Shown here: positions 9,233 to 27,989 of the stretch, one piece after another
How positions within the stretch are numbered: the first letter of the stretch is position 1
Layout: every line of letters begins with the position of its first letter
DNA from: Vulcanimicrobiaceae bacterium
GTDB taxonomy: Bacteria > Vulcanimicrobiota > Vulcanimicrobiia > Vulcanimicrobiales > Vulcanimicrobiaceae
DNA: 27,989 nt
NCBI GenBank assembly: GCA_046262595.1
Contig: JBHEMM010000021.1
Coordinates: 1 to 27,989 of the forward strand
Reading direction: 5' to 3'
Program-made: the position numbers and the translations under genes
The notes under the pieces: model-generated
What the model was told of the DNA's origin: nothing
The model's input: the letters and a program-made list of their open reading frames with translations, nothing else
The model's database searches: none

Positions 9233-11478
9233 TGCAGCAAGAAGCCCTCGTAACCGTAACCATCGACGGTACCGCCGTGCACGTGCCCAAAGGCACGCTG
9301 CTGGTTGAAGCTGCGAAGCAGATAAAGCGGGAGATTCCGGTTTATTGCTATCACACGAAGATGGGGCCGGCCGGGTTGTGCCGCATCTGTTTGGTGGAAA
9401 TCGAAGGCATGCCGAAACTGCAGATCGGCTGCAACACCGCCGTCACCGACGGCATGGTGGTGCGCACGCAAAGCGAGAAGGCCGCCGACGGCCGCCGCGC
9501 CGTCCTCGAGCTGTACTTGAAGAATCACCCGCTGGATTGTCCGATCTGCGATAAGGGCGGCGAGTGCGATCTGCAGGACTACGCGATGGCCTACGGACAG
9601 GATTATTCGCGCAGTGCCGACCCCAAAGTACTCAAGCCTAAAGCGGTGGACCTCGGTCCGACGATTGTGCTCGACGAAGAGCGCTGCGTCGTCTGCCAGC
9701 GCTGCGTGCGCTTCGACGACATGATCGTCGGCGAGCGCGAACTCGTGCTGAAGGATCGCGGCGTGCACAACATCATTGCCACGGCAACGGGCGAGCCGTA
9801 CCGGCATAATTTCACGGGCAACGTTACGGAGCTGTGTCCGGTCGGGGCGCTGACGTCGAAGACCTACCGATTTAAGTCGCGCCCGTGGGATCTCGCGCGC
9901 ACGACGACGTCATGCACACAGTGCCCGGTCGGCTGTCAAATGCACGTTGACGTTCGCGTGAACAAAGTGATGCGCACGATGTCCGTCGAGCAGGACGACG
10001 CCATTTCCGATACGTGGCTGTGCGACCGCGGGCGCTACAACATCGGCTTTTACGACAGTCCGGGCCGGCTCATGCAGCCGCTCTACAAACAGGACGGCGA
10101 ATGGATACAGATCGGGTGGGACGATGCGCTCGAACTGTGGGCCACCGCACTGCGGCAAGCCGCCGCGGTAAACCCGCAGACGGCCGGCGCGATCGGCGGC
10201 GGACGCTTGACGAATGAAGAAGCGTACGTGCTGCAGCACCTCTTTCGCGCCCTCGGCGTCCAGAACGTGGATTGGCGGGCGGGCCGTCAACGGCAGGGCG
10301 CGCCCGGGCGCAGCGGCGGTACGCTGAGCGAACTTGAGAGCGCGCAAGCCATCGTTCTTTTGGGCGAATCGCCCGCGCAGCGGGCCCCGGTCATGGATCT
10401 GCGCGTGCGCAAAGCCGCGTTTCAGAAAGGCGCAACGTTGATTCGCGTCGGCTCGCTGGAGCGGCGCTATCCTGCGCCCGTTCCATGCACCGACGTCGCG
10501 GATCTTCGCGGCGCGTTAAAGGCGCTCCCCAAAGATATTTCGCGCATCGCCGTGATTTGGGACGGCGAAGATCTCGCGCTCGCAGCGGCACTGCTGGACG
10601 CGCTTCCCAAGGAAGCGCACGTGCTTACGTATATTACCGGCGAACAGCCGAACGCGCGCGGCGCCGAAACGATGGGCATGCTGCCGCGCGGCGGCGGCAT
10701 GGACACGAGCGCAATGCTTGCAGCGGCGCTTGACGGCAATCTTGCGACGCTTGCGATTCTGGGCGCAAATCCCGTGCTGCATTATCGCGGCGGCGCGCAG
10801 GTTGCGCAGGCACTGAGCAAGGTGCCGTTCCTTGTCGTGAGCGATCTGTTCATGACGGAAACGGCGCAGCTTGCGACACTGGTGCTTCCGGCAAAAGGCC
10901 CGTTTGAAAAGAACGGCACCAGCATCAACGTGGGCGGCGACTTGCTGGCCCTCAATGCGGCGGCGCGTTTAGAGCCGCCCGAGGGCGTGCTGTCCGATTT
11001 GGAGATGTTTGCCGGACTTGCGGGCGTGCTGCGCGTCGAACTGCCCTCGCATGAAGAAGTGCACGCCGCGGTTATCGCACGCGCGGCGAGCGTTCCGGAG
11101 TTCACGCTTGGGGACCAGCGTTTCGCCCGCATCGCATCGCCGCAAGCCGAGCCGCAACCGCCGCAGGACGGGGCTTTGCGCGTCTGGCTTCAATCGGATA
11201 TTTTCGCGGGCGGCGGCACCAGCGCGAACGACACTGCGATTGCGGCGCTGCGGCCGCTTCCCCAAGCTGCCCTTTGCGCGGCCGATGCCGCGCGCTTGGG
11301 CGCCGCGACGGGCAGTTATGTCGATCTCGAGTCCGGCAGCACCGTCATGCGCGACGTGCTGGTGGAAGTGCGCGAGCGCATGCCCTCGGGAACTGTCGCG
11401 CTCGTGGGTGGTTTGCCGGATGACCCAGCGAACGGCTTTGCGGACGGCGCGCGCGCAACGGTGACGAACGTTCGATGA
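9232..11478 (+). CDS. nuoG: NADH-quinone oxidoreductase subunit G
   Basis: ATG at 9232 (MQQEALV). Cluster motifs are CYH..GLCRICLVE..GC (N1b), HPLDCPICDKGGEC (N5), CVVCQRC..CPVGAL (N4) and CTQCPVGC..CDRGR (N7). Confidence 0.96.
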   Translation: MQQEALVTVTIDGTAVHVPKGTLLVEAAKQIKREIPVYCYHTKMGPAGLCRICLVEIEGMPKLQIGCNTAVTDGMVVRTQSEKAADGRRAVLELYLKNHPLDCPICDKGGECDLQDYAMAYGQDYSRSADPKVLKPKAVDLGPTIVLDEERCVVCQRCVRFDDMIVGERELVLKDRGVHNIIATATGEPYRHNFTGNVTELCPVGALTSKTYRFKSRPWDLARTTTSCTQCPVGCQMHVDVRVNKVMRTMSVEQDDAISDTWLCDRGRYNIGFYDSPGRLMQPLYKQDGEWIQIGWDDALELWATALRQAAAVNPQTAGAIGGGRLTNEEAYVLQHLFRALGVQNVDWRAGRQRQGAPGRSGGTLSELESAQAIVLLGESPAQRAPVMDLRVRKAAFQKGATLIRVGSLERRYPAPVPCTDVADLRGALKALPKDISRIAVIWDGEDLALAAALLDALPKEAHVLTYITGEQPNARGAETMGMLPRGGGMDTSAMLAAALDGNLATLAILGANPVLHYRGGAQVAQALSKVPFLVVSDLFMTETAQLATLVLPAKGPFEKNGTSINVGGDLLALNAAARLEPPEGVLSDLEMFAGLAGVLRVELPSHEEVHAAVIARAASVPEFTLGDQRFARIASPQAEPQPPQDGALRVWLQSDIFAGGGTSANDTAIAALRPLPQAALCAADAARLGAATGSYVDLESGSTVMRDVLVEVRERMPSGTVALVGGLPDDPANGFADGARATVTNVR

Positions 11479-12476
11479 ACATTTTAACACCCGCAGCGAG
11501 CATTTGGTGGATGGTGCTGATCAAGTGTGCCGTCCTGCTGCTCGTCGTCGTCACGACGTTCGCTTACGCGATGCTGTTCGAGCGCAAGGTGATGGGGTGG
11601 ATGCAGCTGCGTCCCGGCCCCAACCGCGTCGGTCCCTGGGGGCTCCTTCAGCCGGCCGTCGATGCGGTGAAGCTGATCTTAAAAGAAGATCTTACTCCGA
11701 AGACCGCCGATCCGCTGATTTACCGTCTGGCGCCGTTTATCTCGCTCCTGACGGCATTTTCCGTCTACGCGGTGATCCCGTTCTCCGAGCCCTCGCCCGG
11801 CAGCATCTGGGCGATCGGCGACGTCAACGCCGGCATTTTATTCATTCTTGCACTAACGTCGATTGGCGTGTACGGCATATCGTTGGGCGGCTGGGCGTCG
11901 GGATCGAAGTATCCGCTGCTCGGCAGCGTGCGCGCGACCGCACAGATGATCAGCTACGAGCTCTCGATGTCGCTCTCGATTATCGGCGTGCTGATTTTGG
12001 CGGGAACCACCTCGCTTTCCGGCATCGTGAACGCGCAGACGCGGCTTTGGTTCATCATTCCGCAGATCGTCGGCTTCTTTATTTACATTATCACGGCCAT
12101 CGCTGAAACCAACCGCGCTCCGTTCGACTTGGTCGAAGCCGATGCGGAGCTCGTCGGCGGATTCAACACCGAATACTCGGGGCTGCGTTTCGGGCTGTTT
12201 TTCATCGCCGAATACATCAACATGCTGACCGTTTCGTGCATCGCGACGCTCTTGTTCTTGGGCGGCTGGAATGCCGTCGCGGGCTTGAGCTTCATTCCGG
12301 GCATCGTGTGGTTCTTACTGAAAGTGGCGCTGTTCATGTTTTTGTATATTTGGCTGCGCTCGACGTTCCCGCGCTTCCGGTATGACCGGCTCATGGCCTT
12401 CGGCTGGAAAGTGCTGCTGCCGGCGGCAACGTTGAATCTCGTCGCCACCGCGGTGATCGTGGCGGTGCGTCCGTGA
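11475..12476 (+). CDS. nuoH: NADH-quinone oxidoreductase subunit H
   Basis: Motifs ERKVMGWMQLRPGPNRVGP, KEDLTP, AQMISYE, AETNRAPFDL and PRFRYDRLM..GWK. Confidence 0.98.
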   Translation: MNILTPAASIWWMVLIKCAVLLLVVVTTFAYAMLFERKVMGWMQLRPGPNRVGPWGLLQPAVDAVKLILKEDLTPKTADPLIYRLAPFISLLTAFSVYAVIPFSEPSPGSIWAIGDVNAGILFILALTSIGVYGISLGGWASGSKYPLLGSVRATAQMISYELSMSLSIIGVLILAGTTSLSGIVNAQTRLWFIIPQIVGFFIYIITAIAETNRAPFDLVEADAELVGGFNTEYSGLRFGLFFIAEYINMLTVSCIATLLFLGGWNAVAGLSFIPGIVWFLLKVALFMFLYIWLRSTFPRFRYDRLMAFGWKVLLPAATLNLVATAVIVAVRP

Positions 12477-13078
12477 GCAGCCGCAAGAATCTTTTCAACG
12501 TCGGCGCACTTGCGGCAGGCTTGGCCGTGACGTTCAAGCACATGTTTTCAAAGAAGCCGACCATTCCGTATCCATCGCAAAAGAAAAAGCATGCGCCGCG
12601 CTTTCACGGTCTGCACGAACTGCGGCGCTATGCCGACGGCAAAGAGCGCTGCATCGGCTGCGAGCTGTGCTCGAGCGTCTGCCCGGCAAACGCTATTACG
12701 GTGATTGGAGCGGAGAACGCTCCGGGCGATCGCCGATCGCCCGGAGAGCGCTACGCCGCGCGTTATGAAATCGACGAGCTGCGCTGTATTTTTTGCGGCA
12801 TGTGCGAAGAAGCGTGCCCCACGGACGCCATCGTCCTCACGCCGCGGTTCGAGATGTCGGAGTACCGGCGGGGCTCGCTGATCTACGCGAAGGATCGTTT
12901 GCTGGTGCCGCCCGAAGCCGGCGTCGGAGAAGCGCCCGACGGCCGCCCGAACGGCATTCCGTGCGATCTCGGCAGCGTCGCGGAGAGAAAATCGACGGTG
13001 GATTGGCGGACCGGCTACGATGCGACGTGGCGCGGGCAGATTCTCAAGACGCAGAAGAAGGGCCTGGCCGAAGAGTGA
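12473..13078 (+). CDS. nuoI: NADH-quinone oxidoreductase subunit I
   Basis: GTG start. Two 4Fe-4S motifs, CIGCELCSSVCP and CIFCGMCEEACP. Confidence 0.97.
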   Translation: MSSRKNLFNVGALAAGLAVTFKHMFSKKPTIPYPSQKKKHAPRFHGLHELRRYADGKERCIGCELCSSVCPANAITVIGAENAPGDRRSPGERYAARYEIDELRCIFCGMCEEACPTDAIVLTPRFEMSEYRRGSLIYAKDRLLVPPEAGVGEAPDGRPNGIPCDLGSVAERKSTVDWRTGYDATWRGQILKTQKKGLAEE

Positions 13079-13674
13079 TCCTCTTTTACGGCGCGGCGTT
13101 CGTTCTGATTGTGACGGCCATCTTCGTCGTCACGGCAAAGAAGCCGGTCCACAGCGTGGTTGGCCTGCTGGCACACTTTGCCGCTCTTGCGGTTTTGTAT
13201 TTTTCGCTTTCCGCTGAATTTCTCGGCGTCATTCAAATCATCGTGTACAGCGGCGCGATCCTCATTTTGTTCGTCTTCGTCATCGCGCTGCTTTCAAGCG
13301 GCGTTGCGCCGTTCCGCGAAGGGCCCAACCGTTTACCGAAAATCGCCTTTCCCGCTGCCGGCGGCATCGCGGTGCTGCTCGGATTTTTGATTTCTGCCGC
13401 CGGGCGCGTTCGCGTGGGCGCGCCGGGGGGCGCTTCGGGCGGTTTACCGCCGGTCGGCGCGGCCAACGCCTTCGGTTCGATCGCCCAGTTCGGACGGGCA
13501 CTGCTCACGACGGACTTGCTGCCGTTCGAAATCACCGCCTTCATTCTTATGGTCGCGGTCATCGGCGTTATTCTGCTGGTCGGCGACACTGCACCGTACG
13601 TGCCGGTTCGTAAACGCGAACGGTTGGCCGACCGCGAAATGCGTGAAGCGGTGCTGCGCGAAGGCGGCAAGTGA
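13075..13674 (+). CDS. nuoJ: NADH-quinone oxidoreductase subunit J
   Basis: GTGA overlap at 13075. Motifs PVHS, AEFLGVIQIIVYSGAILILFVFVI and LLPFE. Confidence 0.95.
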   Translation: MILFYGAAFVLIVTAIFVVTAKKPVHSVVGLLAHFAALAVLYFSLSAEFLGVIQIIVYSGAILILFVFVIALLSSGVAPFREGPNRLPKIAFPAAGGIAVLLGFLISAAGRVRVGAPGGASGGLPPVGAANAFGSIAQFGRALLTTDLLPFEITAFILMVAVIGVILLVGDTAPYVPVRKRERLADREMREAVLREGGK

Positions 13675-14000
13675 TGATGCCGCACGCCGGCCTGCTCCCC
13701 GTCGCCCTTTTTAACTACATCAGCCTCTCGCTGGTGATTTTCTGTATCGGCCTTGCCGGCGTGCTGCTGCGGCGCAATCCGCTGATCATGCTGATGAGCA
13801 TCGAACTGATGTGGAACGCGGCCAATCTGCTGTTCCTCACGTTCTCGCGCGCGTGGCTCAACAACAGCGGTCACATCTTCGCTTTCCTCGTGATCACCGT
13901 CGCGGCCGCCGAAGCTGCGATCGGTTTGGCGATTGTGGTGGCGGTTTTCCGCGATCGGCAGAACGTCGATGCCGATGAAGTGGCGCTTCTCAAAGGATGA
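13671..14000 (+). CDS. nuoK: NADH-quinone oxidoreductase subunit K
   Basis: Motifs RRNPLIMLMSIELMWNA and VAAAEAAIGLA. The start could be 13671, 13674 or 13677. Confidence 0.97.
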   Translation: MMMPHAGLLPVALFNYISLSLVIFCIGLAGVLLRRNPLIMLMSIELMWNAANLLFLTFSRAWLNNSGHIFAFLVITVAAAEAAIGLAIVVAVFRDRQNVDADEVALLKG

Positions 14001-14020
14001 GCTGCGCATCTCATCCTTTT
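13992..14020 (+). terminator. Internal stem-loop at the nuoK/nuoL junction (weak terminator or processing site)
   Basis: Perfect 10-bp inverted repeat AAAGGATGAG / CTCATCCTTT with an 8-nt loop; the 3' arm ends in TTTT. Confidence 0.4.
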
Positions 14021-14041
14021 GGAAGCGCGGTGGAGAAATGA

Positions 14042-16039
14042 TTGGAATACGTACGCATGCATGAGATGGGTGTCGGGGGGAATTATCCCGTGCTTTGGGT
14101 GATTTGGCTGATGCCGTTACTCGGAGCGGTTCTGTGTTGGGCATGGGGGCCGCAGCTCAAACGCGGCGCCGGCGTGCTCGCAAGTGCGGCGGCCGGCGTT
14201 TCGTTCCTCGCCGCGCTGGCCGCTTGGGGAAGCGCGACGCAGCATGTGGGCGGGCTCTTAGGTGCGCATCAGGCGTTGTTTTCGTGGCTGCCCGGATTCG
14301 ATTTCGGCCTGCTGCTCGATCCGCTTGCGCTGATTTGGACGCTGATCATCTGCGGCGTGGGCTTCTTGATCCATGTCTATTCCATCGGGTATCTGTGGTC
14401 GGACCGCGCGATTGCGCGCTTCTTCGCGTACATGAACTTCTTCGTGTTCGCGATGCTCACGCTGGTGCTCAGCGATAACTTCGCCGGCTTACTCGTGGGT
14501 TGGGGTTTGGTGGGTCTGGCTTCGTACTTCCTGATCGGCTTTTGGTTCTTCAAGCCCTCAGCGGTCGCCGCCGCGCGTAAAGCGTTCGTCATCAACGTTG
14601 TCGGCGACGTCGGCATCATGTTCGCGATTTTTTTGATGTTCTCGAAGGTCGGCTCCGTCCGCTTCGCCGACGTCTTCGCCAACCCGCACGCGCTCGATCC
14701 ATGGCTTTTTTGGACGTGCGTGTTTTTGTTCATCGGCGCCGCCGCGAAGTCGGCGCAGCTGCCGCTGCATACCTGGCTTGCCGACGCGATGGAAGGGCCG
14801 ACCCCGGTCTCGGCACTTATCCATGCCGCAACGATGGTCACCGCCGGCGTCTATCTCGTCGCGCGCTGTTCGCCGCTTTGGACCGCCTCGCACGATGCCC
14901 AGACCTTGGTCGGAACGGTGGGCTGCCTCACGGCGCTGGCCGGCGCGATGCTCGGAATCGCGCAGTGGGACATCAAACGAATTCTGGCCTATTCCACCAT
15001 GTCACAGATCGGATACATGATCATGGGCGTCGGCGTTGGCGCGTTCGGCGCGGGCGTGGCGCATTTTTTCACGCACGCGTTCTTTAAAGCGTGCTTGTTC
15101 TTGGGCTCGGGCATCGTCATCCACGAGCTCGCCGACGAACAGGACATCCGCCTGATGGGCGGCATGCGTAAACGCACACCCGTCGCGTTTTGGGCCATGG
15201 GGGCTTCTGTGCTCGCCATCAGCGGCTTTCCATTTTTTTCCGGATACTTCAGTAAGGATCAAGTCATCTACGGCGCGCTGCAGAATGGGTATCCATGGAT
15301 GTGGGCGGTGGGGCTTCTGACGGCCGGCATCACGGCGTATTACATGTTCCGGTTGTTCTTCGTCACCTTTTTTGGCACGTACCGCGGCGCTTTGGATCCG
15401 GCGCAGGTCGGCGTGACGCGGCAAGCGCAGTCCGGCCCGGGCGCCGTCATCTCGCACCAGCATGCCGAACCGCACGAACGCGATGCGCACGCGCCTGGCT
15501 GGATTATGGCGGTGCCCGTTGCGATTCTCGGCGTTTTCGCCGTGACAGCCGGCTACCTCATGATCGGCCCCGAGTCGCCATGGGCGCATTTTTTCGCGTC
15601 TTCCTTTCCCGCGCGAGCATTGCCCACGCCGGCCATCAGCGAAGTGGCGACCACACTGATCGCCGTCGCAATGTTTGCGATCGGCTGCGCGCTGGCGTAC
15701 GGCCGCTACATGAGCCGTGCGTTCTTGGAAAACGCGGCGCAGCACCTCGCGCGCGAAACGCGAACGCAGCCGCGCGTCCTCGTGCATTTATACTACTTCA
15801 ACGAAGCGATCGACGTGCTGTTCGTGCGGCCCGCCCTGGCGCTGGGCACATTTTGCGGGCGCTGGTTCGATCCGCATCTGATCGACGGCGTGGTGCGTGA
15901 AACACTGTTGGGAAGCCGCTTCGCGGGCAGTGTGATGCGTGCGGCGCAGACCGGGCTGGTCCGTTCGTACGCGCTCGTGCTCGTCTTGGGCGCGGCTGCG
16001 TTTGCGGTGTACTACGCGCTCGAAGGGGCGGCGCACTGA
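14042..16039 (+). CDS. nuoL: NADH-quinone oxidoreductase subunit L
   Basis: Motifs KSAQLPLHTWLADAMEGPTPVSALIHAATMV, DIKRILAYSTMSQ, HAFFKA, FSKD and QTGLVRSY. The TTG start follows GGAG; alternative ATGs are at 14057 and 14066. Confidence 0.97.
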   Translation: MEYVRMHEMGVGGNYPVLWVIWLMPLLGAVLCWAWGPQLKRGAGVLASAAAGVSFLAALAAWGSATQHVGGLLGAHQALFSWLPGFDFGLLLDPLALIWTLIICGVGFLIHVYSIGYLWSDRAIARFFAYMNFFVFAMLTLVLSDNFAGLLVGWGLVGLASYFLIGFWFFKPSAVAAARKAFVINVVGDVGIMFAIFLMFSKVGSVRFADVFANPHALDPWLFWTCVFLFIGAAAKSAQLPLHTWLADAMEGPTPVSALIHAATMVTAGVYLVARCSPLWTASHDAQTLVGTVGCLTALAGAMLGIAQWDIKRILAYSTMSQIGYMIMGVGVGAFGAGVAHFFTHAFFKACLFLGSGIVIHELADEQDIRLMGGMRKRTPVAFWAMGASVLAISGFPFFSGYFSKDQVIYGALQNGYPWMWAVGLLTAGITAYYMFRLFFVTFFGTYRGALDPAQVGVTRQAQSGPGAVISHQHAEPHERDAHAPGWIMAVPVAILGVFAVTAGYLMIGPESPWAHFFASSFPARALPTPAISEVATTLIAVAMFAIGCALAYGRYMSRAFLENAAQHLARETRTQPRVLVHLYYFNEAIDVLFVRPALALGTFCGRWFDPHLIDGVVRETLLGSRFAGSVMRAAQTGLVRSYALVLVLGAAAFAVYYALEGAAH

Positions 16040-17436
16040 TGTCCGTGCTGCTCATTTTGATTCCCATGATCGCGGGTGCGCTGCTGTTCGCACTTCCCGC
16101 TGCGGATCGCACTGTAAGCCGCATCGCCGGCTGCGCTGTCGCCGCATTCACCTTTTTACTGCCGCTCGCAGCAGGCCCCGGCGGAACGTTCAGCGCGCAT
16201 TGGCTGTCGCGCCCGTTCGACGCCGCGTTCCACTTGAGTTGGAGCGGCATCTCGCTCTGGCTTGTGTTGCTGCTTGCGGTCTGTACGTTCTGTGCGGTGC
16301 TTGCCGCAAACGTGACGCACACGCGGACGATGATCGCGCTGCTGCTGCTGCTCGAGGGCAGCATGATGGGCGTCTTTACGGCGCGCGATCTGCTCGCGTT
16401 CGCGCTGTTTTGGGACCTGATGCTCATTCCGCCGTTTTTTGCACTCGTGGGATGGGGCGGTCACCGTGAAACGGCGTGGCGCTACTTGCTCTATAATTTT
16501 GCCGGAGGATTAACGCTGCTGCTCGCAACGGCGGCCTTCGGCGTGATCCAAGGCAGCACCGACGTACTCGCCGGCGGGGCACATGCGGTGATCGGCGCCT
16601 GGGCGCCGTGGATCTTTGCCGGGTTTGCGTTTGCGTTCGCCGTAAAGACGCCGCTGTTTCCTTTGCATACGTGGATGCCGGCGACATATGCGGATACGCC
16701 GGCGCCGATGGTCAGTGTGGTCAGCTCGGTGCAGTCGAAGGCCGGTCTCTACGGATTCTTGGTGATCGGATTGCCGTTCTTGAGCGGCCAGATGGCGCAA
16801 TGGCGGGGATTGTTCGTCGTCATCGGGTTGATCTCGCTGCTCTACGGCGCATTTATCGCGCTCGCGCAGACGGACGCAAAGCGTATCGTGGCCTACTCGT
16901 CGCTCTCGCATCTGGGCCTCATCGCGCTCGCGGTGTTCAGTCAGAATCCCGTGGCCTTACAGGGCGCGCTGATCTATATTGTCGCGCACGGATTGTTCAG
17001 CGCAGCGCTCTTTCTCATACTCGGTTACGTGGAACAGCGCGAAGGAACGCGGTCGCTGCGCCGTCTGGGCGGTTTGGGCGCGCTCAATCCGAAGCTCGCC
17101 GGCGCGTTCACGATCGCCGCGTTGGCGGCACTCGGGCTTCCGGGCCTTGCCGGCTTTGCGGGCGAAATCGTCATTCTGACGGGCGTGCTGCGCGCGGGAC
17201 TGTTCTGGCCGGCGATGATCGCGCTTATCCCGATCGTTCTGGCTTCCGCCTACGTGCTGCGCTTGCTGCAAGACGTCATGAACGGCCCGCCGGTTGAGGA
17301 CTTGCCCGAGCGGCGCGATCTGACGCTCGTCGAAGGATTGGCCGTTGCTCCGCTGCTCGGCGCGCTCGTCGTACTCGGCGTGAACCCGCACGCGCTGACC
17401 GCAAGCGTCGCGGCAATTTTGGGAGCGAAACCATGA
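16039..17436 (+). CDS. nuoM: NADH-quinone oxidoreductase subunit M
   Basis: Motifs AFAVKTPLFPLHTWMP, DAKRIVAYSSLSH, AHGL and GLPGLAGFAGE. Confidence 0.96.
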   Translation: MSVLLILIPMIAGALLFALPAADRTVSRIAGCAVAAFTFLLPLAAGPGGTFSAHWLSRPFDAAFHLSWSGISLWLVLLLAVCTFCAVLAANVTHTRTMIALLLLLEGSMMGVFTARDLLAFALFWDLMLIPPFFALVGWGGHRETAWRYLLYNFAGGLTLLLATAAFGVIQGSTDVLAGGAHAVIGAWAPWIFAGFAFAFAVKTPLFPLHTWMPATYADTPAPMVSVVSSVQSKAGLYGFLVIGLPFLSGQMAQWRGLFVVIGLISLLYGAFIALAQTDAKRIVAYSSLSHLGLIALAVFSQNPVALQGALIYIVAHGLFSAALFLILGYVEQREGTRSLRRLGGLGALNPKLAGAFTIAALAALGLPGLAGFAGEIVILTGVLRAGLFWPAMIALIPIVLASAYVLRLLQDVMNGPPVEDLPERRDLTLVEGLAVAPLLGALVVLGVNPHALTASVAAILGAKP

Positions 17437-18866
17437 TCCTCAACCCGTACGGGGCGCTCGATTGGAACGCGGTCGCGCCGCTCTTCATCGTCGCAGGCGC
17501 CGCCGTCATCGTTCTGCTTGCCGATCTGCTCGTGCGAAAGCCGAACGGCTGGATATCGATTGGAATCGCCATTGCGGGTCTGCTCGCGGCGGGCGCATAT
17601 GCGGCGCGCAGCTTCGGCACGGTCCACTCCGCGTTCGCCGGCGGCTTTTTGCTCGGCGGATTCGGCATCGTGATGCAGGAAACGATTGTCATCGGCGCTT
17701 TGCTCGCGCTCGCAATGATCCGCGTCGACCGCAATCCGCAGCGCATCGGCGGCAGCGTCGCGCTGCTTCTGTGGGCGACCAGCGGCGCCATGCTGATGGC
17801 GGGCGCCGGGAACCTCATGACCGTGTTCTTGGGGCTGGAGCTGCTCTCGCTCGCACTGTATTGTTTGTGCGCGCTCGGCCGGCGTGCTGCGTCCCGCGAA
17901 TCAGGCTTCAAATATCTCATCCTATCCTCGACGGCTTCCGGGTTTCTGCTTTTCGGCATGGCGCTGCTGTTCGGCGCCACGGGAAGCATGGCGCTGGGCG
18001 CGCTCACCGCTCCCGCGCTCTCGCACGATCCGCTCTATTGGATCGGCGGCGGCCTATTTATCGCGGGGCTTGCGTTCAAATTGAGCTTGGTGCCGTTTCA
18101 CGTGTGGTCGCCCGACGTGTACGAAGGCGCTCCGCTCGCGGTGACGGCCTACATGAGCGTGGTTACGAAGGTCGGAACGCTGGCGGTGCTCGCGCGCTTC
18201 ATCTTCTCCGCATACGCTGCCGGAACCGGCGACGCGCTTCTGCTGCCGCTGTTCATCATCGCCGGCATATCGATGGTCGCCGGCAATGCGGCAATGATCG
18301 CGCAGACCGACCTCAAGAGGCTATTGGCGTATTCCGGCATCGCGCAGGCGGGGTATATCGTTGCGGCGCTCGCGGGCGGCACGGCACTGGGCGCGCGCTA
18401 TGCGATCTACTACGTCGTCGCCTACACACTTATGAACCTGGGCGCGTTTGCCGTTGCGGCGCTCTGTTCTCACGATGCCGAAGAGGGCGCGCACTTGCCA
18501 TCATACCGCGGGTTGGCGCGGCGCAGACCGTTCCTGGCTGCGGCCATGACGTTCTTTCTGCTCGCGCTCGCCGGCTTTCCGCCGACGGCCGGATTTCTGG
18601 GCAAAGTGCTCATCCTGTCGGTGAACGTGACGGCCGGCTTTGCCTGGCTGGGCGCGTTGCTCATCATCGGCACCGCGATATCGCTTTACGCCTACTTTAA
18701 AATCATCCGCGCGATGTACGAGCCGCAAGCGCGGCCGACCGCAGCGGCCGCGCGTTGGACGCAGTTGCCGTTGGCCTACGTGTCCATCGTCGTGTGCGCT
18801 GCGGCGATAGCGGTGATGACGTTCTATCCGCTCACGCCGAGCAGCGTTCTCCCGCTTGCGCGATAG
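17433..18866 (+). CDS. nuoN: NADH-quinone oxidoreductase subunit N
   Basis: Motifs FLGLELLSL, ESGFKY, FKLSLVPFHVWSPDVYEGAP, KRLLAYSGIAQAGY and GFPPTAGFLGK. Confidence 0.97.
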   Translation: MILNPYGALDWNAVAPLFIVAGAAVIVLLADLLVRKPNGWISIGIAIAGLLAAGAYAARSFGTVHSAFAGGFLLGGFGIVMQETIVIGALLALAMIRVDRNPQRIGGSVALLLWATSGAMLMAGAGNLMTVFLGLELLSLALYCLCALGRRAASRESGFKYLILSSTASGFLLFGMALLFGATGSMALGALTAPALSHDPLYWIGGGLFIAGLAFKLSLVPFHVWSPDVYEGAPLAVTAYMSVVTKVGTLAVLARFIFSAYAAGTGDALLLPLFIIAGISMVAGNAAMIAQTDLKRLLAYSGIAQAGYIVAALAGGTALGARYAIYYVVAYTLMNLGAFAVAALCSHDAEEGAHLPSYRGLARRRPFLAAAMTFFLLALAGFPPTAGFLGKVLILSVNVTAGFAWLGALLIIGTAISLYAYFKIIRAMYEPQARPTAAAARWTQLPLAYVSIVVCAAAIAVMTFYPLTPSSVLPLAR

Positions 18867-19009: not shown

Positions 19010-19510
19010 ATGGATTTTCGGCGCGCGCTCATAGCGCTCTGCTTTTTGACTTCTACGCTGCCCGGAATCGCGCTTGCGCGACCGCAGGTGGCTTTGCATT
19101 TGTCCGCATTTTTAATTCAATCGTCGCAAGGCCGCAGCTCGCAAGTGCCGCTCGGCGATAAGAAGGCGCAAGCCGGAGATCGCGTGCGCTTCATTATCGA
19201 AGCGCGCAACAGCGGTTCGTCTTCCGCCTTGCATCTGACGCCCACCGATCCGATTCCGGCGCACATGACGTATGTGAGCGGCAGCGCACAGGATGGCCAA
19301 TCCACCGTGCAGTTTACCGTGGACGGAAAAACGTGGGCCGAACATCCCACCGTTCACGTCAAGACGAGCAAACGAACCATCAGCAAGCCGGCTGACCCCT
19401 CGATGTACAGGGCAATCCGCTGGGTGACGCACGTAGCATTACCGGCAAAGCATACGTTCACGTATTCGTACGAAGCGCAAGTGGACGGTCTTAAAAAAGG
19501 CGCGAAATGA
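19010..19510 (+). CDS. Small exported single DUF11-like domain protein
   Basis: GGGAG Shine-Dalgarno and ATG at 19010. The signal peptide ends in ALA. Motifs GDRVRFIIEARNSG, TDPIPAHMTYVSGSA and IRW..LPA..TYSYEAQV. Confidence 0.8.
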   Translation: MDFRRALIALCFLTSTLPGIALARPQVALHLSAFLIQSSQGRSSQVPLGDKKAQAGDRVRFIIEARNSGSSSALHLTPTDPIPAHMTYVSGSAQDGQSTVQFTVDGKTWAEHPTVHVKTSKRTISKPADPSMYRAIRWVTHVALPAKHTFTYSYEAQVDGLKKGAK

Positions 19511-22080
19511 ACCGGATTCTTTTGCGCGCCTGGTTCGGCGTTTTTGTCTTTGCCTGCGTTCTGGGATTGGCGCTCTCGCGGCACTCCGCCATGACGCCCG
19601 TAATGGCCGTTACGCCGAGTCCTACGCCCGTTCCGCTGCCGTACGCTTCGGCGACGCCGACACCGGCGAGTCCCTCGCTCACCGGCCCGGGACAAACGAT
19701 CACCAACGCCGCGTCCGCAACGTACAGCGACGGCACGAATACGTACAATATTCTCTCGAACACGGTCACCGTTTACGTGCAGAACGCTCCCACGCTCGTC
19801 GTACTCACGAACAACGGCACGAGCGTGGGAAGCAACACGACCCGCTATCCGGGCGTCTACACGTACGATCTGTACACGCTCGTCAACACGGGTAATGGGA
19901 CGGGCTATTTCACCGTCGCATCGGGCCCGCAAGCCTCGCCCACGCCGTTGCCCGCAACGAACAGCGGCACGGGAACGACCGGCACGGTCACCAACGTCAG
20001 TTACGATGTCAGCTGCAGCGGCGGCGCGACTTTGAACGACATCGTCACCACGATCGCCGCGCTGAATACCGACTTGCAGAACGCTGCGTGCAGCGTTGCT
20101 TCCAACGGCTCGGTGAGCATCGAAGTGGTCCTCGACCCGACGGCGGCGCCCGCTTCGGACGGATCGACGCTCGAAGCGCAGATCACCTATTCGACGAGCG
20201 GCACCGGCTACAATGCCGCGAGCTCGCTCTATGCAAGCAACTCGTACGTCGACCCGGTCGTCACGGACGAGCGAATCGACGTGCAGAAATCCCCGGCACC
20301 GATCGCGACGGACGGTACCGTCACGTATGCGGTCACCGCCAACAATGCCGGCAACGGCCCGGCGCAGTACGTTACCGACTATGGCACTACGTGTACGGGC
20401 ACCGTTACGGTGTGCGGCCCGGCATTGACGGGCCCCGGCTTGCTGATCGCGGATAAGATTCCGCTCAATGCAAGCAACACGCCGCTCCCCGTCGTTACGA
20501 TGTCGCCCTCGCCCGGGCCGCAAGCGCTGCCGCCGAGCACGACCGTTTCCGTCGTTTACACCACCGACAGTACTGCGAAGACGGGCTGGACCGTGAAGAC
20601 GGCCGCAACCTTCCCGCCGACGACGCGATACGTCGGCGTGTTCCTCACGGGCGGCGCATATGCGCTCGGCGCGGACCCCACGCCTGCGGCAACGACGACG
20701 CCGGGCTTCGTGCCGGCGGCGAGTTCGCAGATCGGTTTTAGCGTCACGCTCGGGCCGCTCCCCGCGAACCTCACCGTCAGCAATATCGTGACGGCTGCGG
20801 CGGGAGACAACAAGACGACGCCGTGCATCGAAGGGCCCGGCTTGGTGACGACCTCGACGAGCTGCGATCCGAACGGACCGAACGGCCCCGGCGGCGATCC
20901 GTCGATTCCGCTGGCAACGGCGCCGCCTTCACCGAGCGCGCCCGGACCGGGCCTCTCGAACACGACGACGACGTTTACTCCCGCGCTTTACAACGGCCCG
21001 CTCACTGCTCCGGATGCACAAGGCTGTTTCAACAGCAGCGCAGCTCCGGTGCCCCTGCCGACGTGGAGCCCGATGCCCAATCCGTTCCCGACGATTTCGC
21101 CCACAACGTCGCCGACCTGTGCCGCAACGGACAACCAAGACGACTTCACGCAAGCCGTGAGCACGCCGAATCCTTCTACGACCAACATGCCGTACGGCAC
21201 GCAGATGTCCGCCGCATCGACCGTGACGGTGGCGAACTCGATTAAAAACCCGGGCGCGCAATCCACCGTGTATCAGTTGACGTTTCCAACGCTTCCGGCG
21301 GGCATTACGGTGACGAGCGTCACCTACGGCGCCGCGTCGTGCTCGACGACCTCAACGCCGGCCTCGGGCGTATATCCGCTGGGAAGCATCGGCGCAGGTG
21401 CAACGATCCAATACTGCGTGCTCTATACCACCGCGACCGGTGCGAGCGCGCCGTATTACTTCCAGCCGCAGTTCGTTCAACTGCGCGTTGCATACTCGTC
21501 GGCGCCGGCGGTGTACTACAACGACACGTGGAACGTGCTGATGCCCGGCGGTTTCGTTGAAATCGTTAAGACCGCCAACATCCTGACCGCGCTTCCCGCA
21601 ATCTCGAACTTCTCCGGAAACTGCTCGGGAACGATTACGGGCGGCTTGCCGACGCTGGGCGTCTGTCCGGGCGGCATCATCCAATACGCCGTCGCCTACG
21701 TCAACACGTTACCGCCCACCTCAAGCGGCACGCCGGCCGAACCGGCTGGAGCATCCGTTGCGATGACGGGCAACTTGGTGATCACGGAAGACGGCGCTGT
21801 GAACGGCAGCAATTGGACGACGTACACGGGCGGCATGTTCGACCCTGCCGGCGCGGGTACGGTGCCGCTTGTTGCGGGGCTTTCATTGAGCACGCTCTCG
21901 GCGAATTGCGGCATCGTAACGCTCAAATGCGGCGCGACATCCGCTTCGGCGACCTTCGGCGGCGGCGCCTCACCGAATGGCAACCTCTACGGCTCGACGC
22001 ACTTCACCGCTACCATTCCCGCTGCGGGCATTACGGCGCAGAGCGTCGGCACGTTGATGTTCGCCGCAAAAGTGCACTAG
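19507..22080 (+). CDS. Large exported S/T/P-rich multi-Ig-fold (DUF11-like) protein, candidate major fibre subunit
   Basis: ATGA overlap and a signal peptide. Segments include TITNAASATY, YTLVNTGNG, VQKS..VTYAVTANNAG..ADKIP and IVKT..PGGIIQYAVAYVN..ITEDG. The mature region has 14 Cys. Confidence 0.8.
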   Translation: MNRILLRAWFGVFVFACVLGLALSRHSAMTPVMAVTPSPTPVPLPYASATPTPASPSLTGPGQTITNAASATYSDGTNTYNILSNTVTVYVQNAPTLVVLTNNGTSVGSNTTRYPGVYTYDLYTLVNTGNGTGYFTVASGPQASPTPLPATNSGTGTTGTVTNVSYDVSCSGGATLNDIVTTIAALNTDLQNAACSVASNGSVSIEVVLDPTAAPASDGSTLEAQITYSTSGTGYNAASSLYASNSYVDPVVTDERIDVQKSPAPIATDGTVTYAVTANNAGNGPAQYVTDYGTTCTGTVTVCGPALTGPGLLIADKIPLNASNTPLPVVTMSPSPGPQALPPSTTVSVVYTTDSTAKTGWTVKTAATFPPTTRYVGVFLTGGAYALGADPTPAATTTPGFVPAASSQIGFSVTLGPLPANLTVSNIVTAAAGDNKTTPCIEGPGLVTTSTSCDPNGPNGPGGDPSIPLATAPPSPSAPGPGLSNTTTTFTPALYNGPLTAPDAQGCFNSSAAPVPLPTWSPMPNPFPTISPTTSPTCAATDNQDDFTQAVSTPNPSTTNMPYGTQMSAASTVTVANSIKNPGAQSTVYQLTFPTLPAGITVTSVTYGAASCSTTSTPASGVYPLGSIGAGATIQYCVLYTTATGASAPYYFQPQFVQLRVAYSSAPAVYYNDTWNVLMPGGFVEIVKTANILTALPAISNFSGNCSGTITGGLPTLGVCPGGIIQYAVAYVNTLPPTSSGTPAEPAGASVAMTGNLVITEDGAVNGSNWTTYTGGMFDPAGAGTVPLVAGLSLSTLSANCGIVTLKCGATSASATFGGGASPNGNLYGSTHFTATIPAAGITAQSVGTLMFAAKVH

Positions 22081-22096
22081 GCACAATCGAGGTCTG

Positions 22097-24256
22097 GTGA
22101 AGGGTGCCTTCGTCCGACTAATACCGGTCGCCACGGTCCTCATGACGCTCGTTGTCATGTTGGGCCGTGGCGAATCGGCATATGCCGGGCCGTCCGATCC
22201 GGCCGCTAACACAACGATAATCAATTCGGCTACGGCGACCTGGTCCGACAGTGCCGGGCATAGTTTCGAAGAATCGTCCAATCAGATTACCGTTATCGTC
22301 CAAGGCGTTTCGGCGCTTACCGTGACGCCGAAGGAAACCGCTGCGAATCCCTCGCTGGATGGTTATCCCGCCGCTCAAAACGTGACGCGGACGTTCGTGA
22401 TCGAAAACGCGAGCAACATCGCCGACGCGTACCGCATATCCGCATTTACGGCCGACCGCGGAACGCTCGTTTCGCTTGCGTTCGTCACGTCCGGCGGGAA
22501 CGTTCCCATCACCGTCGGTTCCACCGTCTCGCCCACGCTGCAGCCGGGCGAGAGCATCACGGTGCAAACGGTCGTCTCAACGGCGGGCATTGCGGTAGGC
22601 ACCTCGTTTGCGCTGCATCTCACGGCGCAGACCACCGTCACGGGAACCGCGAACGGCGTGCAGAGCGACAGCGGCGAGCAATGGCTTGTGGCGGCGGCCG
22701 GTCCGGCTTTGAGCGGCCCCGGCGGCGGCAGCACGCCGATCTCGAAAACGGTGAACCGCGAACAAGTGCTGCAGTCGCAGTCGGGCGCGATCGTCACGTT
22801 CGACATCGTCGTAAAGAACAACGGCGGGACGCCTGCCGACAACGCGGTGATGACGGATACGATACCCGCCGGCCTGACGGCCGACCTGACGACGCTTAAA
22901 CTCAACGGCGTTGCGGTTTCGGGAACGCAATCCGGTCAAACGCTCACGGTGCCGCTTGGCATGCTGGCGGCAGGCGCGGTCGACGACGTCTCGTTCAATT
23001 CGCAGATCGCTGCTATCGATACGCTCGGCACGACGTTCGTGAACGTCGCGGCGATCGCCGCAGACGGTATTGCGCCGGCCTCGACGACGCCGGCCGCCAT
23101 TTTGATCGGCACGGCCGACATCGTTTTCGACCCGTCGAACAACAACGCGCCGATCGCCGGCGCGACCGTTTCGCTCCTCGACCAGAACAGTCACTTGGTG
23201 CCCCTGGGCGCCGGCAGCAACGGCGCGTTCCGCGCGAAGACTTTTTCCGCTCCGCAGTCGGCCAATTCGCAGAACCCGTTGCTCACGGGTCCCGACGGCA
23301 CGTACGGGTTCGCGCTCGAGCCGAATCAAATCGGCCCCGGCGCAGGCACGTTTTACATTACGATTCAGGCTCCCGGGTATCTTAACCGCCGAATCAAAAT
23401 CGTTCTCACGGCGTCCACGCAAGGCATGCTGTACGACGTGACGACCTCATCGCAGGACGGCCAGCCCTTAGCGCACGCGGGCGGGTATGCGCTTACAACG
23501 GGCGCCGTTGCGCTCAATAATATCTTCGGTTTGTTCGGCAACTTGCCGATGTTCAAAACGCAGGCGATTACCATCGATAAAGTGGTCGACCGCACCAGCG
23601 CGCAACCCGGCGACCGGCTCGTCTACACGCTCGATGTTGCGAACCCGTCCGGCGCGCCGCTGATCGCGGCCAAGGCGATCGACACGCTGCCCTCGGGCGA
23701 ATCGTATGCGCCCGGATCCGCGCGCGTGGATGGGGTCCCGCGCGAACCCGCCGTCAACGGACGCGCGCTGACGTGGAATCTCTCGACGATCGCCTCGGGC
23801 GCGAAACATCAGATCGTTTACGCGGCGATCGTCTATCCCAACGTCCCGGCCGGTACCACGTTGACGAACTCCGCGGTCGCGCAGGCGGTCCTCTCGGGAA
23901 CACTGGTCAACGTAAATGCCGCGGCCAATGCCGACGTCATCATCACCGAAGGCGCATTGAGCGACCGCTCCGTCATCACCGGCCGGGTGTTCGCGGACCT
24001 GATGCACACCGGCCGCTTCGTTAAAGGCGATCGCGGCCTGGCCGGCGTGCGCGTCTTTCTTGAAGACGGCACCTCGGTGACGACGGACTCGCAAGGGCGC
24101 TACAGTTTCCCGGGCGTCCGGCCGGGCATGCACGTGCTTCGCGTCGACCGGACGACGCTTCCCGACGGCGCAAACGGGACGTTTCAGCGTCTCATCCACG
24201 GCGTGCTCGACGACGGGCTGATGCAAGACGTCGAGTTTGCGGTGGGTTCGCCATGA
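22097..24256 (+). CDS. Exported protein with two DUF11 repeats and a C-terminal SdrD-B-like domain
   Basis: GAGG followed by GTG, then a signal ending AYA. Repeats are SKTV..VTFDIVVKNNG..TDTIPAGL and DKVVD..PGDRLVYTL..DTLPSG. The C-terminal domain reads ITGRVFAD..GLAGVRVFLEDG..TDSQGRYSFPGVRPGMHVLRVDRTTLP. Confidence 0.85.
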   Translation: MKGAFVRLIPVATVLMTLVVMLGRGESAYAGPSDPAANTTIINSATATWSDSAGHSFEESSNQITVIVQGVSALTVTPKETAANPSLDGYPAAQNVTRTFVIENASNIADAYRISAFTADRGTLVSLAFVTSGGNVPITVGSTVSPTLQPGESITVQTVVSTAGIAVGTSFALHLTAQTTVTGTANGVQSDSGEQWLVAAAGPALSGPGGGSTPISKTVNREQVLQSQSGAIVTFDIVVKNNGGTPADNAVMTDTIPAGLTADLTTLKLNGVAVSGTQSGQTLTVPLGMLAAGAVDDVSFNSQIAAIDTLGTTFVNVAAIAADGIAPASTTPAAILIGTADIVFDPSNNNAPIAGATVSLLDQNSHLVPLGAGSNGAFRAKTFSAPQSANSQNPLLTGPDGTYGFALEPNQIGPGAGTFYITIQAPGYLNRRIKIVLTASTQGMLYDVTTSSQDGQPLAHAGGYALTTGAVALNNIFGLFGNLPMFKTQAITIDKVVDRTSAQPGDRLVYTLDVANPSGAPLIAAKAIDTLPSGESYAPGSARVDGVPREPAVNGRALTWNLSTIASGAKHQIVYAAIVYPNVPAGTTLTNSAVAQAVLSGTLVNVNAAANADVIITEGALSDRSVITGRVFADLMHTGRFVKGDRGLAGVRVFLEDGTSVTTDSQGRYSFPGVRPGMHVLRVDRTTLPDGANGTFQRLIHGVLDDGLMQDVEFAVGSP

Positions 24257-27200: not shown

Positions 27201-27528
27201 TGCGGGCCGCGTCGGCTACAAGCTCAATGGCGACGGATACTATCTCGCGCACAGTTCGGTTGCGGGCGTGCGCATCACCCAATCGCTCGGCGCGCGGTTC
27301 GACATCGCCGGCGAAGTGCGCGCGATGGCTGCCGGGAACGTTGCGTCCGCGCGTTCTTCGGATTTTGCAGCCGAGATCGGCTACAAAGCGGGCGGCGCGC
27401 GGCTGTCGGGCGGGTACAATTTCTCTGGTGCGGTCGACCCGTCGCTTACCGGACATCCGCAGCGCAAAGGCTTGTATGTGATGGTAACGGCGCTTGTCGA
27501 TCGCATCTTCGGCTGGGGCAAGCCGTGA
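24253..27528 (+). CDS. Large predicted outer-membrane beta-barrel protein with N-terminal Ig-like domains
   Basis: It has its own signal peptide and an Ig-like region (ADGKTT..VDQW). Motifs YQTYGDSS and RNVDYTIDYATGAL are followed by several hundred residues of alternating amphipathic strands ending in GYNFSG..KGLYV. Confidence 0.75.
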   Translation: MIRRSFARLLQAVAVLLICVAGVGSTLFFTRAQDDSKPQYSDLSHLKLTATRRLPANVIAPQDGASISGAATQVTVETVNGAGVELQVNGEIVPVRNLGRMSVSKAGTTQFEYFGVLLRAGPNTLLATAIGAGGARGASQSETIFGAGPPVAIHVSMLGSLVADGKTTARLIVDAVDQWNHPAMSGSEVRVKILQGRARVGNAGQSDPAAGASPAPSAFATSLPASGTSSPQAHYVLAQGGRIVIPLTASLEPGTLQLQVAVNDITDTQSYTIAPYLRAPFVNGIISAGAGNVPAAVDGDGRYDGGGARKERLAIYANGKVGRASSLTFSYESQNRLEESSSLGPFVSNPDERPYQTYGDSSRVTSDFHSTDRLYARIDNGRNNLMWGQYTAAVGDPQGVAHYEQQISGLKGEATLGRPGQGHVMAFTAHDRTGYVAFTTPVSGLGALLAPLHPNVVIGSDVLTLVALDRRTGAAASQTPLTRNVDYTIDYATGALRFLNVPLPFDQNFNPQLLYIQYQYQGPDVKSETSGFDFRYALARNGSATFDFGYLNDASGTTNYSLATQSLSGRMPTGDWRFSRATSNGSAPTAASFGETPASRGSATSFALNEHVRGNEIAFNYQNTGAGFANPFGGFNVTGLENIQATFAHRTRSQSAFTLSLSQQRNTGGSGGSTGVEQNVVASWQAAIAKALAVTLGFQAQRETNGPGAIVPGHTPVQPVNGSSAGLQAGLQWKASRRLSVSVQHAASLGGNSQILPSQTAAEADYDLPTQGRLYVRELLGGGVSSFASSTSSLTNASLGSRSTQIGIQRTIGSTTALDTSYLIADTGNETNVYTTLGVQETFHLGKRLSGNATFESARSTGASPGGFSTLGTGLTYSDLKDFRASFSMQTRGGGGGGMTMNGGAAGHIGQNLALMGSFNETFGNGLSIVDDRISLAFRPSQNDRFISLLGLDRQSGGYTNTAGTSDILSFEEVYRPTLTTEIAGRVGYKLNGDGYYLAHSSVAGVRITQSLGARFDIAGEVRAMAAGNVASARSSDFAAEIGYKAGGARLSGGYNFSGAVDPSLTGHPQRKGLYVMVTALVDRIFGWGKP

Positions 27529-27989
27529 GCCGCGGCGGCAAACGGCTTGTAAAACGCACTGCGGTTGGACTGGTTCTGCTCGCGCAGGTGTACGCGTTCG
27601 TTCCGGCGCCGGCGCAAGAACGGCAGACGTACGCCTTTGCCGCAAGCGTCACGTGCCCAACCACGCCCGGAAACTATGTCGCCGGCGGGACGCTGGCCGC
27701 CGGCGTGAACAGCTATTGGCAGCCGCCCGCGGGGACGCTTGCGGCAGGCTCCACGACGTTTTCGCTGGGAACGATCGACACCGCGGGCGGCGGCGCCTCC
27801 ACAACGCCGAGCGCCGGCGACGAACTGTTGCTGATCCAGATGCAAGACGGATCCATCAATACGGCCAACAGCGCGGCTTACGGCGGCGGGGGCACCGGCG
27901 GCACCGGTTTCACTTCGCTCGGCAACGCCGGCTTGTACGAGTACGTATCGGTAACCGGCGTGGCGGGTTCCACAATGACGATCCAGGGC
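27525..27989 (+). CDS. Exported adhesin-like protein, 3'-partial (absent from the ORF track)
   Basis: GTGA overlap, and the frame is open to the window end: MSRGGKRLVKRTAVGLVLLAQVYAFVPAPAQ...GDELLLIQMQDGSINTANSAAYGG...GNAGLYEYV. Confidence 0.75.
   Translation, partial: MSRGGKRLVKRTAVGLVLLAQVYAFVPAPAQERQTYAFAASVTCPTTPGNYVAGGTLAAGVNSYWQPPAGTLAAGSTTFSLGTIDTAGGGASTTPSAGDELLLIQMQDGSINTANSAAYGGGGTGGTGFTSLGNAGLYEYVSVTGVAGSTMTIQG

Follow-up and report, generated by a model that had tools for sequence, protein, structure and literature searches.

In the engineered pair SpyTag/SpyCatcher an isopeptide domain is split, such that a strand with one of the bond partners restores the domain and reacts spontaneously. 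Another engineered split isopeptide pair, Jo-In, originates from RrgA (PMC5333627). CLIPPER domains (DUF11, PF01345), exemplified by crystal structure 9IFR, are CnaA-like immunoglobulin (Ig) domains with a Lys on the first strand, an Asp or Glu, and an Asn on the penultimate strand (PMC12617251). For BsaA of Clostridium perfringens, a TasA family protein, donor-strand 'exchange and lock' involving N35, E56 and K74 has been put forward in a preprint with mutant support (PMC11580942), and for the thread protein Saci_0406 of Sulfolobus acidocaldarius strand complementation has been described together with a proposed isopeptide bond between the alpha-amine of Asp24 and Asn57, connecting subunits n and n+2 (PMC9715654). 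Here we describe five genes in a 27,989-nt stretch of DNA, referred to as the window, from a Vulcanimicrobiaceae bacterium (GCA_046262595.1, contig JBHEMM010000021.1, positions 1-27,989, forward strand), a diderm soil bacterium of the Eremiobacterota. With a probability of roughly 0.6, these genes (18995 to beyond 27989) encode a surface fibre whose subunits are joined by two-strand complementation of a split CnaA/CLIPPER-like Ig domain, with a probable K688-N67 lock.

An initial annotation of this DNA, made from the sequence alone, had proposed such a joint for the protein referred to here as shaft protein P0001, and had implied that it was without precedent. In view of BsaA and the archaeal thread, it is less unprecedented than that; the principle of donor-strand exchange with an Asn-Glu-Lys lock is not new, because BsaA is a published precedent. 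A full-text literature search, covering articles without their supplements, found no published description of the present system.

The two halves of the split domain

The C-terminal domain of P0001, the acceptor, carries a Lys in the context IVK688T and an acid in the context ITE761DG, and the chain ends right after the strand GTLMFAAKVH. The donor is a hairpin near the N-terminus, located behind the signal peptide, G62-QTITN67AASATYSDGTNTYNILSNTVTVYVQ92. Judged from the sequences, the triad of a first-strand Lys, a catalytic acid and a penultimate-strand Asn is complete only across two chains, and no in-chain Asn downstream of E761 is invariant among 27 full-length relatives. All sequence strings quoted in the initial annotation were recovered at their residues in P0001 and the neighbouring P0002, and GTTFVNVAAI and GTTLTNSAVA, which it took from complete repeats, indeed lie inside complete DUF11 repeats of P0002 (Pfam PF01345, 5.6e-13; the protein also matches TIGR01451 at 1.4e-18 and TIGR04226 at 6.1e-12).

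The acceptor domain modelled alone (predicted local distance difference test, pLDDT, 78; predicted template modelling score, pTM, 0.77) resembles known isopeptide domains. In a Foldseek search Gram-positive pilins and collagen adhesins rank highest, and 9IFR takes rank 15. With the exhaustive aligner VIA-align the best match was 7wrk (Z 7.1); 4mdr reached Z 7.0, and the 9IFR CLIPPER domain aligned over 92 residues with Z 6.7 and a root mean square deviation (rmsd) of 2.1. Further neighbours are isopeptide pilin domains such as RrgB, EbpB, SpaD, BcpA and LrpA, with Z 5-6. The 9IFR match covers the range 18-109 of 18-140, in line with the earlier claim that the C-terminal domain is incomplete and falls short of the Asn strand. 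The 9IFR construct comprises residues 708-828 behind a cleaved tag, whose length we take to be such that entry positions 20-140 correspond to 708-828; with this offset, the match stops at residue 797, nine residues short of the bond-forming Asn806. In the same presumed numbering, the 31 unmatched residues of 9IFR hold Asn806 and strand beta9, and the hairpin G62-Q92 is likewise 31 residues long. Comparison of the acceptor domain and P0002 with sequences in the Protein Data Bank (PDB) gave chance-level matches only.

Domain 1 follows the hairpin in the chain. For a modelled fragment of residues 53-254, all 50 structural matches listed start at fragment residue 37-46, past the hairpin, and span ~40-202, and domain 1 matches 9IFR across its entire length (18-140). 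Since all listed matches begin behind the hairpin, domain 1 is complete without it, in line with the description of the hairpin as free in the initial annotation. The middle domain shows a weak DUF11 match (E 0.16) and an in-chain triad, K261, D316 and N426, which is invariant together with D434. By its sequence it probably forms an ordinary intramolecular isopeptide bond and would provide an internal example of the usual arrangement.

P0001 as a whole matched 0 families in Pfam and NCBIfam and belongs to a small family, for which 1.84 billion representatives contain 42 clusters at E <= 0.001. In the alignment of 27 full-length relatives, of which the nearest 13 share 55-72% identity and the rest 31-40%, the most conserved stretch is the N-terminal element 59-95. 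Invariant columns include N67, A69, A71, Y73, D75, S84, N85, V87, K688, T760, E761 and G763, and since they persist down to 31% identity, the hairpin/acceptor pattern is beyond chance.

A scan of one genome per species gave 318 pattern matches, 103 of them encoding a relative; 80 were kept, with 78 related loci. Sorting of open reading frames (ORFs) by hairpin and acceptor profiles, with the window and locus L001 included, yielded 69 donor+acceptor, 68 donor-only and 30 acceptor-only proteins. Both N67 and S84 are kept in all 137 hairpins (69/69 donor+acceptor, 68/68 donor-only), and N85 in 131 of the 137 (69/69 and 62/68), being replaced by P, E or R in six donor-only proteins; fused Acidobacterial proteins read VSPTV at this position. 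Acceptor-only proteins lack the hairpin and hence have no entries for these residues. Position 688 is Lys in 69/69 donor+acceptor and 28/30 acceptor-only rows, and position 761 is Glu in 57 and Asp in 12 of the 69, and Asp in 24 and Glu in four of the 30; both are kept in 97 of 99 acceptor rows, the remaining two being gapped fragments. G763 is present in every aligned acceptor row.

The position at which the chain stops is conserved as well. It lies no more than three residues from the H857 column in 55 of the 69 shaft proteins, the last strands of the other 14 having been left unaligned by the profile, and when 46 acceptor domains were aligned with MAFFT, all of the 23 rows displayed, with those of Acidobacterial and cyanobacterial origin among them, end at one column. 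No hairpin match was found at any C-terminus in the related loci. Searched against the whole genome, the hairpin profile detects only P0001 (2e-22) and P0002 (7.7e-7), the third-best match having E 0.62. An N-x7-D pattern is common to N67/D75, to N426/D434 of the middle domain, and to N315/D323 and N43/D51 of P0002. Homology of the hairpin to the N426 strand was tried by hhalign and rejected as not significant (E 0.016, probability 2.9%). Cys residues of the acceptor (P0001 720, 799 and 806, in VCPGG and NCG...KCG) are conserved within subfamilies, position 720 being Cys in 23/69 shaft and 27/30 acceptor-only domains; they may pair in disulfides of the kind reported for a large number of CLIPPER domains.

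A complex of residues 676-857 with residues 54-98, both with their own alignments, was modelled alongside three controls. The interaction prediction score from aligned errors (ipSAE) was 0.74, 0.78 and 0.75, versus 0.00 for the best of the three controls, the partner pLDDT did not fall below 69, and runs shared 83% or more of their contacts. In a benchmark, 116 of 157 solved complexes attained the ipSAE mark, as did 2 of 215 mismatched pairs; these counts are only a rough guide because an own alignment was supplied. The predicted interface comprises 681-690, 716-731 (alternating), 751-763 and 765-770 on the acceptor side and 63-76 and 82-94 on the hairpin side, and includes K688, E761 and N67. 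In the model, strand 757-760 pairs with 69-73, N67 contacts Y727, S768 and W770, and K688 contacts S84, N85 and V87. Head-to-tail insertion of the hairpin into the C-terminal domain, as put forward in the initial annotation, is therefore supported by the complex score (0.75 versus 0.00), and the logic of the operon agrees with it.

Composition of the operon and related loci

The five genes are co-oriented, and each start overlaps or lies close behind the preceding stop (Table 1). Beyond what had been annotated initially, P0002 carries an N-terminal hairpin and the fifth gene ends in a truncated acceptor domain. As the fifth protein has no hairpin and the same truncated domain, the operon encodes a donor+acceptor (P0001), a donor-only (P0002) and an acceptor-only protein (fifth gene). 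In P0002, N43 and N62 are the counterparts of N67 and N85; its hairpin (residues 38-69) is followed by two DUF11 repeats, and its C-terminal domain is CarboxypepD_reg/SdrD_B-like. The protein also matches the isopeptide-domain model of RrgB. P0002 is a candidate terminator or anchor.

The fifth protein has a signal peptide, a Gly-rich middle and the ending ...LKITDDG...SLVFAAKVH, with Lys and Asp at the positions of K688 and E761; the part at contig positions 29681-30367 is recognized at 1.9e-33. It is a candidate tip subunit. The gene crosses a run of N (contig positions ~27990-28001, ~591-602 of L001) over which the reading frame shifts, which leaves the acceptor-only protein incomplete towards its N-terminus in this assembly.

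P0003 has an Ig-like (Big_1/Invasin_D3-like) part near residues 140-264, followed by a Gly/Ser/Thr-rich all-beta region of no known family. A P0003 profile found nothing below E 0.01 among PDB sequences and no barrel family in Pfam, with weak matches to Big_1 in 6 of 21 members and to Invasin_D3 in 5 of 21. From its signal peptide, all-beta composition and context, P0003 is probably an outer-membrane platform or anchor. P0004 matches Pfam DUF11 (1.2e-7) over profile positions 10-66 of 114 only and has an acceptor-like end, ...YSYEAQV; 80 homologues from the fetched loci end in ...YEVRVK, the same strand as in acceptor domains. Their consensus has no conserved strand-A Lys or acid, and LVPVGRIPAG where DUF11 has vtDtlP. 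These sequence features suggest that P0004 may be a non-covalent hairpin binder, a chaperone or a cap. P0001, P0002, P0003 and P0004 each have one hydrophobic segment, at the N-terminus, and none besides.

Table 1. Positions of the genes, domains and key residues of the operon (window coordinates; those past 27989 are contig coordinates)
Feature	Position	Strand	Description
P0004	18995..19510	+	171 aa; signal peptide and one partial DUF11 domain
P0001, shaft subunit	19507..22080	+	857 aa; donor and acceptor; ATG overlaps P0004 stop by 4 nt
P0001 donor element	19690..19782	+	residues 62-92; two beta-strands
N67 codon	19705-19707		donor hairpin
P0001 domain 1	19783..20268	+	residues 93-254; Ig-like, complete without hairpin
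P0001 middle domain	20269..20856	+	DUF11-like; invariant in-chain triad K261, D316, N426 (plus D434)
K261 codon	20287-20289		middle domain
D316 codon	20452-20454		middle domain
N426 codon	20782-20784		middle domain
P0001 C-terminal acceptor domain	21532..22077	+	residues 676-857; CnaA/CLIPPER-like Ig without last two strands
K688 codon	21568-21570		acceptor domain
E761 codon	21787-21789		acceptor domain
P0002, donor-only subunit	22097..24256	+	719 aa; hairpin, complete DUF11 domains, CarboxypepD_reg/SdrD_B-like C-terminus
P0002 hairpin	22208-22303		residues 38-69
P0003	24253..27528	+	1091 aa; signal peptide, Ig-like part, large all-beta region
Fifth gene, acceptor-only	27525..27989 in window	+	continues beyond window end to contig position 30367
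Fifth gene, matched part	29681-30367		contig coordinates

The 78 related loci are mostly from Eremiobacterota, with further members in Acidobacteriota (Pyrinomonadaceae and others) and three cyanobacteria; named relatives of the shaft protein belong to Candidatus Eremiobacterota/Vulcanimicrobiota. The shaft gene is intact in 68 of the 78 loci and broken by contig ends or frameshifts in the other ten. The gene immediately upstream of it encodes a P0004 homologue in 63 of the 66 loci where this could be tested (the other three carry one elsewhere in the locus), and the gene immediately downstream a P0002 homologue in 60 of 60. Of these downstream proteins 50 pass the hairpin profile and none (0/60) has an acceptor domain; among 13 donor-type ORFs missed by the profile, 12 show the Asn motif by eye (nine by pattern, three as cyanobacterial variants) and one is truncated. 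Of 52 loci that could be tested for a P0003 homologue, 50 have one, and 22 of 41 have an acceptor-only gene farther downstream. The donor-only and P0003 homologues are fused into one ORF of ~1900-2000 aa in five Acidobacteriota loci (L055, L066, L067, L068 and L079), which suggests that the chain terminator and the probable outer-membrane protein are physically connected. Locus L034 also scores as fused and appears frameshifted. In the cyanobacterial loci L065, L070 and L073 the P0004 homologue is placed after the shaft gene, and the donor-only protein is shorter (~500 aa) with the hairpin variant ITNRA.[YF].Y.D.

The window has a GC content of ~0.63 and is occupied up to 18866 by the nuo operon for complex I (NADH:quinone oxidoreductase), of which nuoG, H, I, J, L, M and N (9088-18866) lie directly upstream on the same strand and are ordinary. 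Downstream of the five genes, at L001:3592-10361 (contig positions ~30991-37760), are genes for a tetratricopeptide repeat (TPR) protein, a pyridoxal phosphate (PLP)-dependent decarboxylase, a hybrid histidine kinase/response regulator and a PAS-GAF-GGDEF diguanylate cyclase; these regulators could reflect cyclic di-GMP control of surface structures. The genome is 2.42 Mb in size and 89.7% complete, and an Omp85 gene was found in it.

Proposed assembly and alternative explanations

We propose that the subunits would be exported by the Sec pathway, and that the acceptor-only fifth protein would form one end of the fibre, the presumed tip. The open C-terminal domain of each subunit would receive the two N-terminal strands of the shaft subunit that follows. 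Insertion would complete the domain, in which K688 and N67 would then probably form an autocatalytic isopeptide bond, aided by E761 and without a sortase. At the other end, donor-only P0002 would close the chain and tie the fibre to P0003. As modelled, such a fibre would follow a chaperone-usher-like logic, with an incomplete Ig domain completed by the next subunit, a donor-less tip and a donor-only terminator. Strand complementation between chains appears likely, and the covalent lock has about even odds or slightly better. As a more tentative proposal, to which we give somewhat less than an even chance, the loci in Eremiobacterota, Acidobacteriota and cyanobacteria could represent an undescribed class of diderm pili, with irreversible split isopeptide joints, an acceptor-only tip, a donor-only terminator tethered or fused to a giant outer-membrane platform, and P0004 as a periplasmic chaperone that caps the hairpin.

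Several points weigh against a covalently locked fibre, in which the isopeptide bond is deduced from sequence and model. The three residues had been expected to be both conserved and adjacent; they are conserved in all aligned relatives and all lie in the predicted interface, but the 25 lowest-error pairs listed do not include K688-N67, so that the geometry of the triad is only presumed. As K688 is listed with S84, N85 and V87, N85 is an alternative bond partner. We tentatively favour N67: this residue is universal, belongs to the N-x7-D motif of in-chain Asn strands and adjoins the E761 strand, and N85 is next to K688 in the listed contacts but substituted in the six donor-only proteins. In CnaA-like domains the bond joins the first and penultimate strands across opposing sheets (PMC12617251), which a K688-N67 bond fits. 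The absence of K688-N67 from these pairs would also suit head-to-tail two-strand complementation that is non-covalent, with Lys, acid and Asn in a structural role as a buried hydrogen-bond or salt-bridge network. Classical chaperone-usher pili, which are very stable without covalent links, count in favour of such an assembly. So do DUF11 domains, some of which lack an isopeptide bond (PMC12617251), and BsaA, whose oligomers are stable in sodium dodecyl sulfate (SDS) even without the bond (PMC11580942). We nevertheless consider a purely structural role unlikely: an invariant, buried Lys with an acid, together with an Asn that comes from the partner alone, is what marks an autocatalytic isopeptide domain, the three residues are kept over three phyla and three protein classes, and the complete middle domain of the same protein retains the triad in one chain.

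Other points concern the two halves themselves. Foldseek gave no match to the acceptor model at E <= 0.001, and its structural matches are middling, all with Z < 8 and hence below the level safe for fold identity. Against Pfam, neither the acceptor domains of P0001 (676-857) and of the fifth protein nor the hairpin matched any family at E <= 10, eight acceptor-only proteins gave nothing, and hhalign found no significant similarity between the acceptor and the complete middle domain of P0001. N67 is part of one of the two fetch patterns, and hairpins and members were gathered by profiles, so that the apparent invariance of N67 is inflated in shaft proteins; the neighbouring donor-only hairpins were no fetch criterion. 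The success of the complex model may stem from resemblance to solved complete CnaA-like domains and thus reflect fit, not binding in trans. Predictors are equally blind to whether insertion occurs in one chain or between chains, and with both halves present in P0001 and ~590 intervening residues setting no obvious length limit, the hairpin could fold back into its own C-terminal domain to give a closed monomeric adhesin and no polymer. This is improbable, as the same operon encodes donor-only and acceptor-only proteins that are incapable of it, and the fusion of the donor-only protein to P0003 in five loci is sensible only for pairing between chains.

In the 53-254 model, i.e. without the acceptor, the hairpin has a pLDDT of 72-89; fragment folding did not discriminate, and since the hairpin is confidently modelled beside domain 1 it may pack on that domain. 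It is also the best conserved part of P0001, and Pfam links neither piece to DUF11. The hairpin might accordingly contribute strands to domain 1 or be a secretion or recognition signal for the outer-membrane protein, similar to two-partner secretion (TPS), with the C-terminal domain a complete, divergent Ig domain. We regard this as very improbable: acceptor-only proteins lack the motif and are yet presumably exported too, domain 1 is complete without the hairpin, the acceptor model stops at position 109 of 9IFR, the complex scored far above its controls, and the orphan Lys/acid pair would be left unexplained. Finally, with respect to distribution, 19 of 41 testable loci yielded no acceptor-only gene, and the system is patchy in the phylum, with the shaft gene (E <= 1e-10) in 30 of 201 sampled genomes and in 29 of 170 of high quality, which implies an accessory system.

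Comparison with known fibre systems

Among known domains CLIPPER comes nearest, in that P0002 and P0004 are Pfam DUF11 members and the acceptor model superposes on part of 9IFR. In CLIPPER proteins, however, the triad lies in one domain of one chain, in the stalk of single-chain adhesins (PMC12617251), whereas here the last two strands with the Asn have been moved to the N-terminus of the partner. The engineered split pairs are laboratory products derived from intact domains; here the split would be natural and would serve polymerisation. The system also differs from sortase-assembled pili, as no match to sortase (PF04203) was found in the 89.7% complete genome, and the P0001 C-terminus, reading ...FAAKVH, has no LPXTG-type sorting signal.

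BsaA is the nearest known system in principle. It shares with the proposed assembly an N-terminal donor strand that enters the next subunit, an autocatalytic Asn-Lys lock with Glu, and independence of sortase (PMC11580942), and the same residues are conserved here, with Asn on the donor and Glu/Asp and Lys in the acceptor. BsaA as described in that preprint differs in its TasA fold, single domain, one-strand donor, Gram-positive host and SipW signal peptidase. By contrast, the present locus has multi-domain subunits, a split CnaA-like domain, a two-strand donor, a diderm host, a dedicated protein of 1091 aa that probably resides in the outer membrane, and distinct subunits that are donor-only or acceptor-only. 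The TasA family was not matched: P0001 has no Pfam family, and its structural neighbours are CnaA-like pilin domains. The archaeal thread resembles the proposed fibre in head-to-tail complementation, an inter-subunit bond, the lack of a sortase and an adjacent gene for a donor-only cap, and differs in its archaeal host, single-domain subunits, unrelated sequence and the absence of a Lys/acid triad (PMC9715654). Haloarchaeal tafi were rejected as a counterpart, being non-covalent and devoid of an isopeptide bond.

If the bond forms, these loci would hold a natural counterpart of the SpyTag/SpyCatcher pairs and build covalent, sortase-free fibres in outer-membrane bacteria, a mode of fibre building so far undescribed for them. 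Such fibres would be assembled in a way separate from that of chaperone-usher, type IV, type V, curli and sortase pili. 'Exchange and lock', which to date has experimental support only in BsaA, an unrelated protein of the TasA type, would be extended to Ig-like adhesin domains. Protein engineering would gain orthogonal tag/catcher pairs of natural origin, and the surface structures of a poorly known phylum, the Eremiobacterota, would become accessible to functional study for the first time. In its overall logic the proposed assembly comes close to chaperone-usher pili (Fim, Pap), with which it would share an incomplete Ig domain that the next subunit completes with its N-terminal extension, a tip with a groove and no donor, a donor-only terminator, and a large outer-membrane protein encoded in the operon. 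It differs from them in that no usher or PapD-like chaperone family was found among the Pfam and NCBIfam matches of P0003 and P0004, and in its two-strand donor, its multi-domain subunits of 700-1000 aa and its likely covalent lock.

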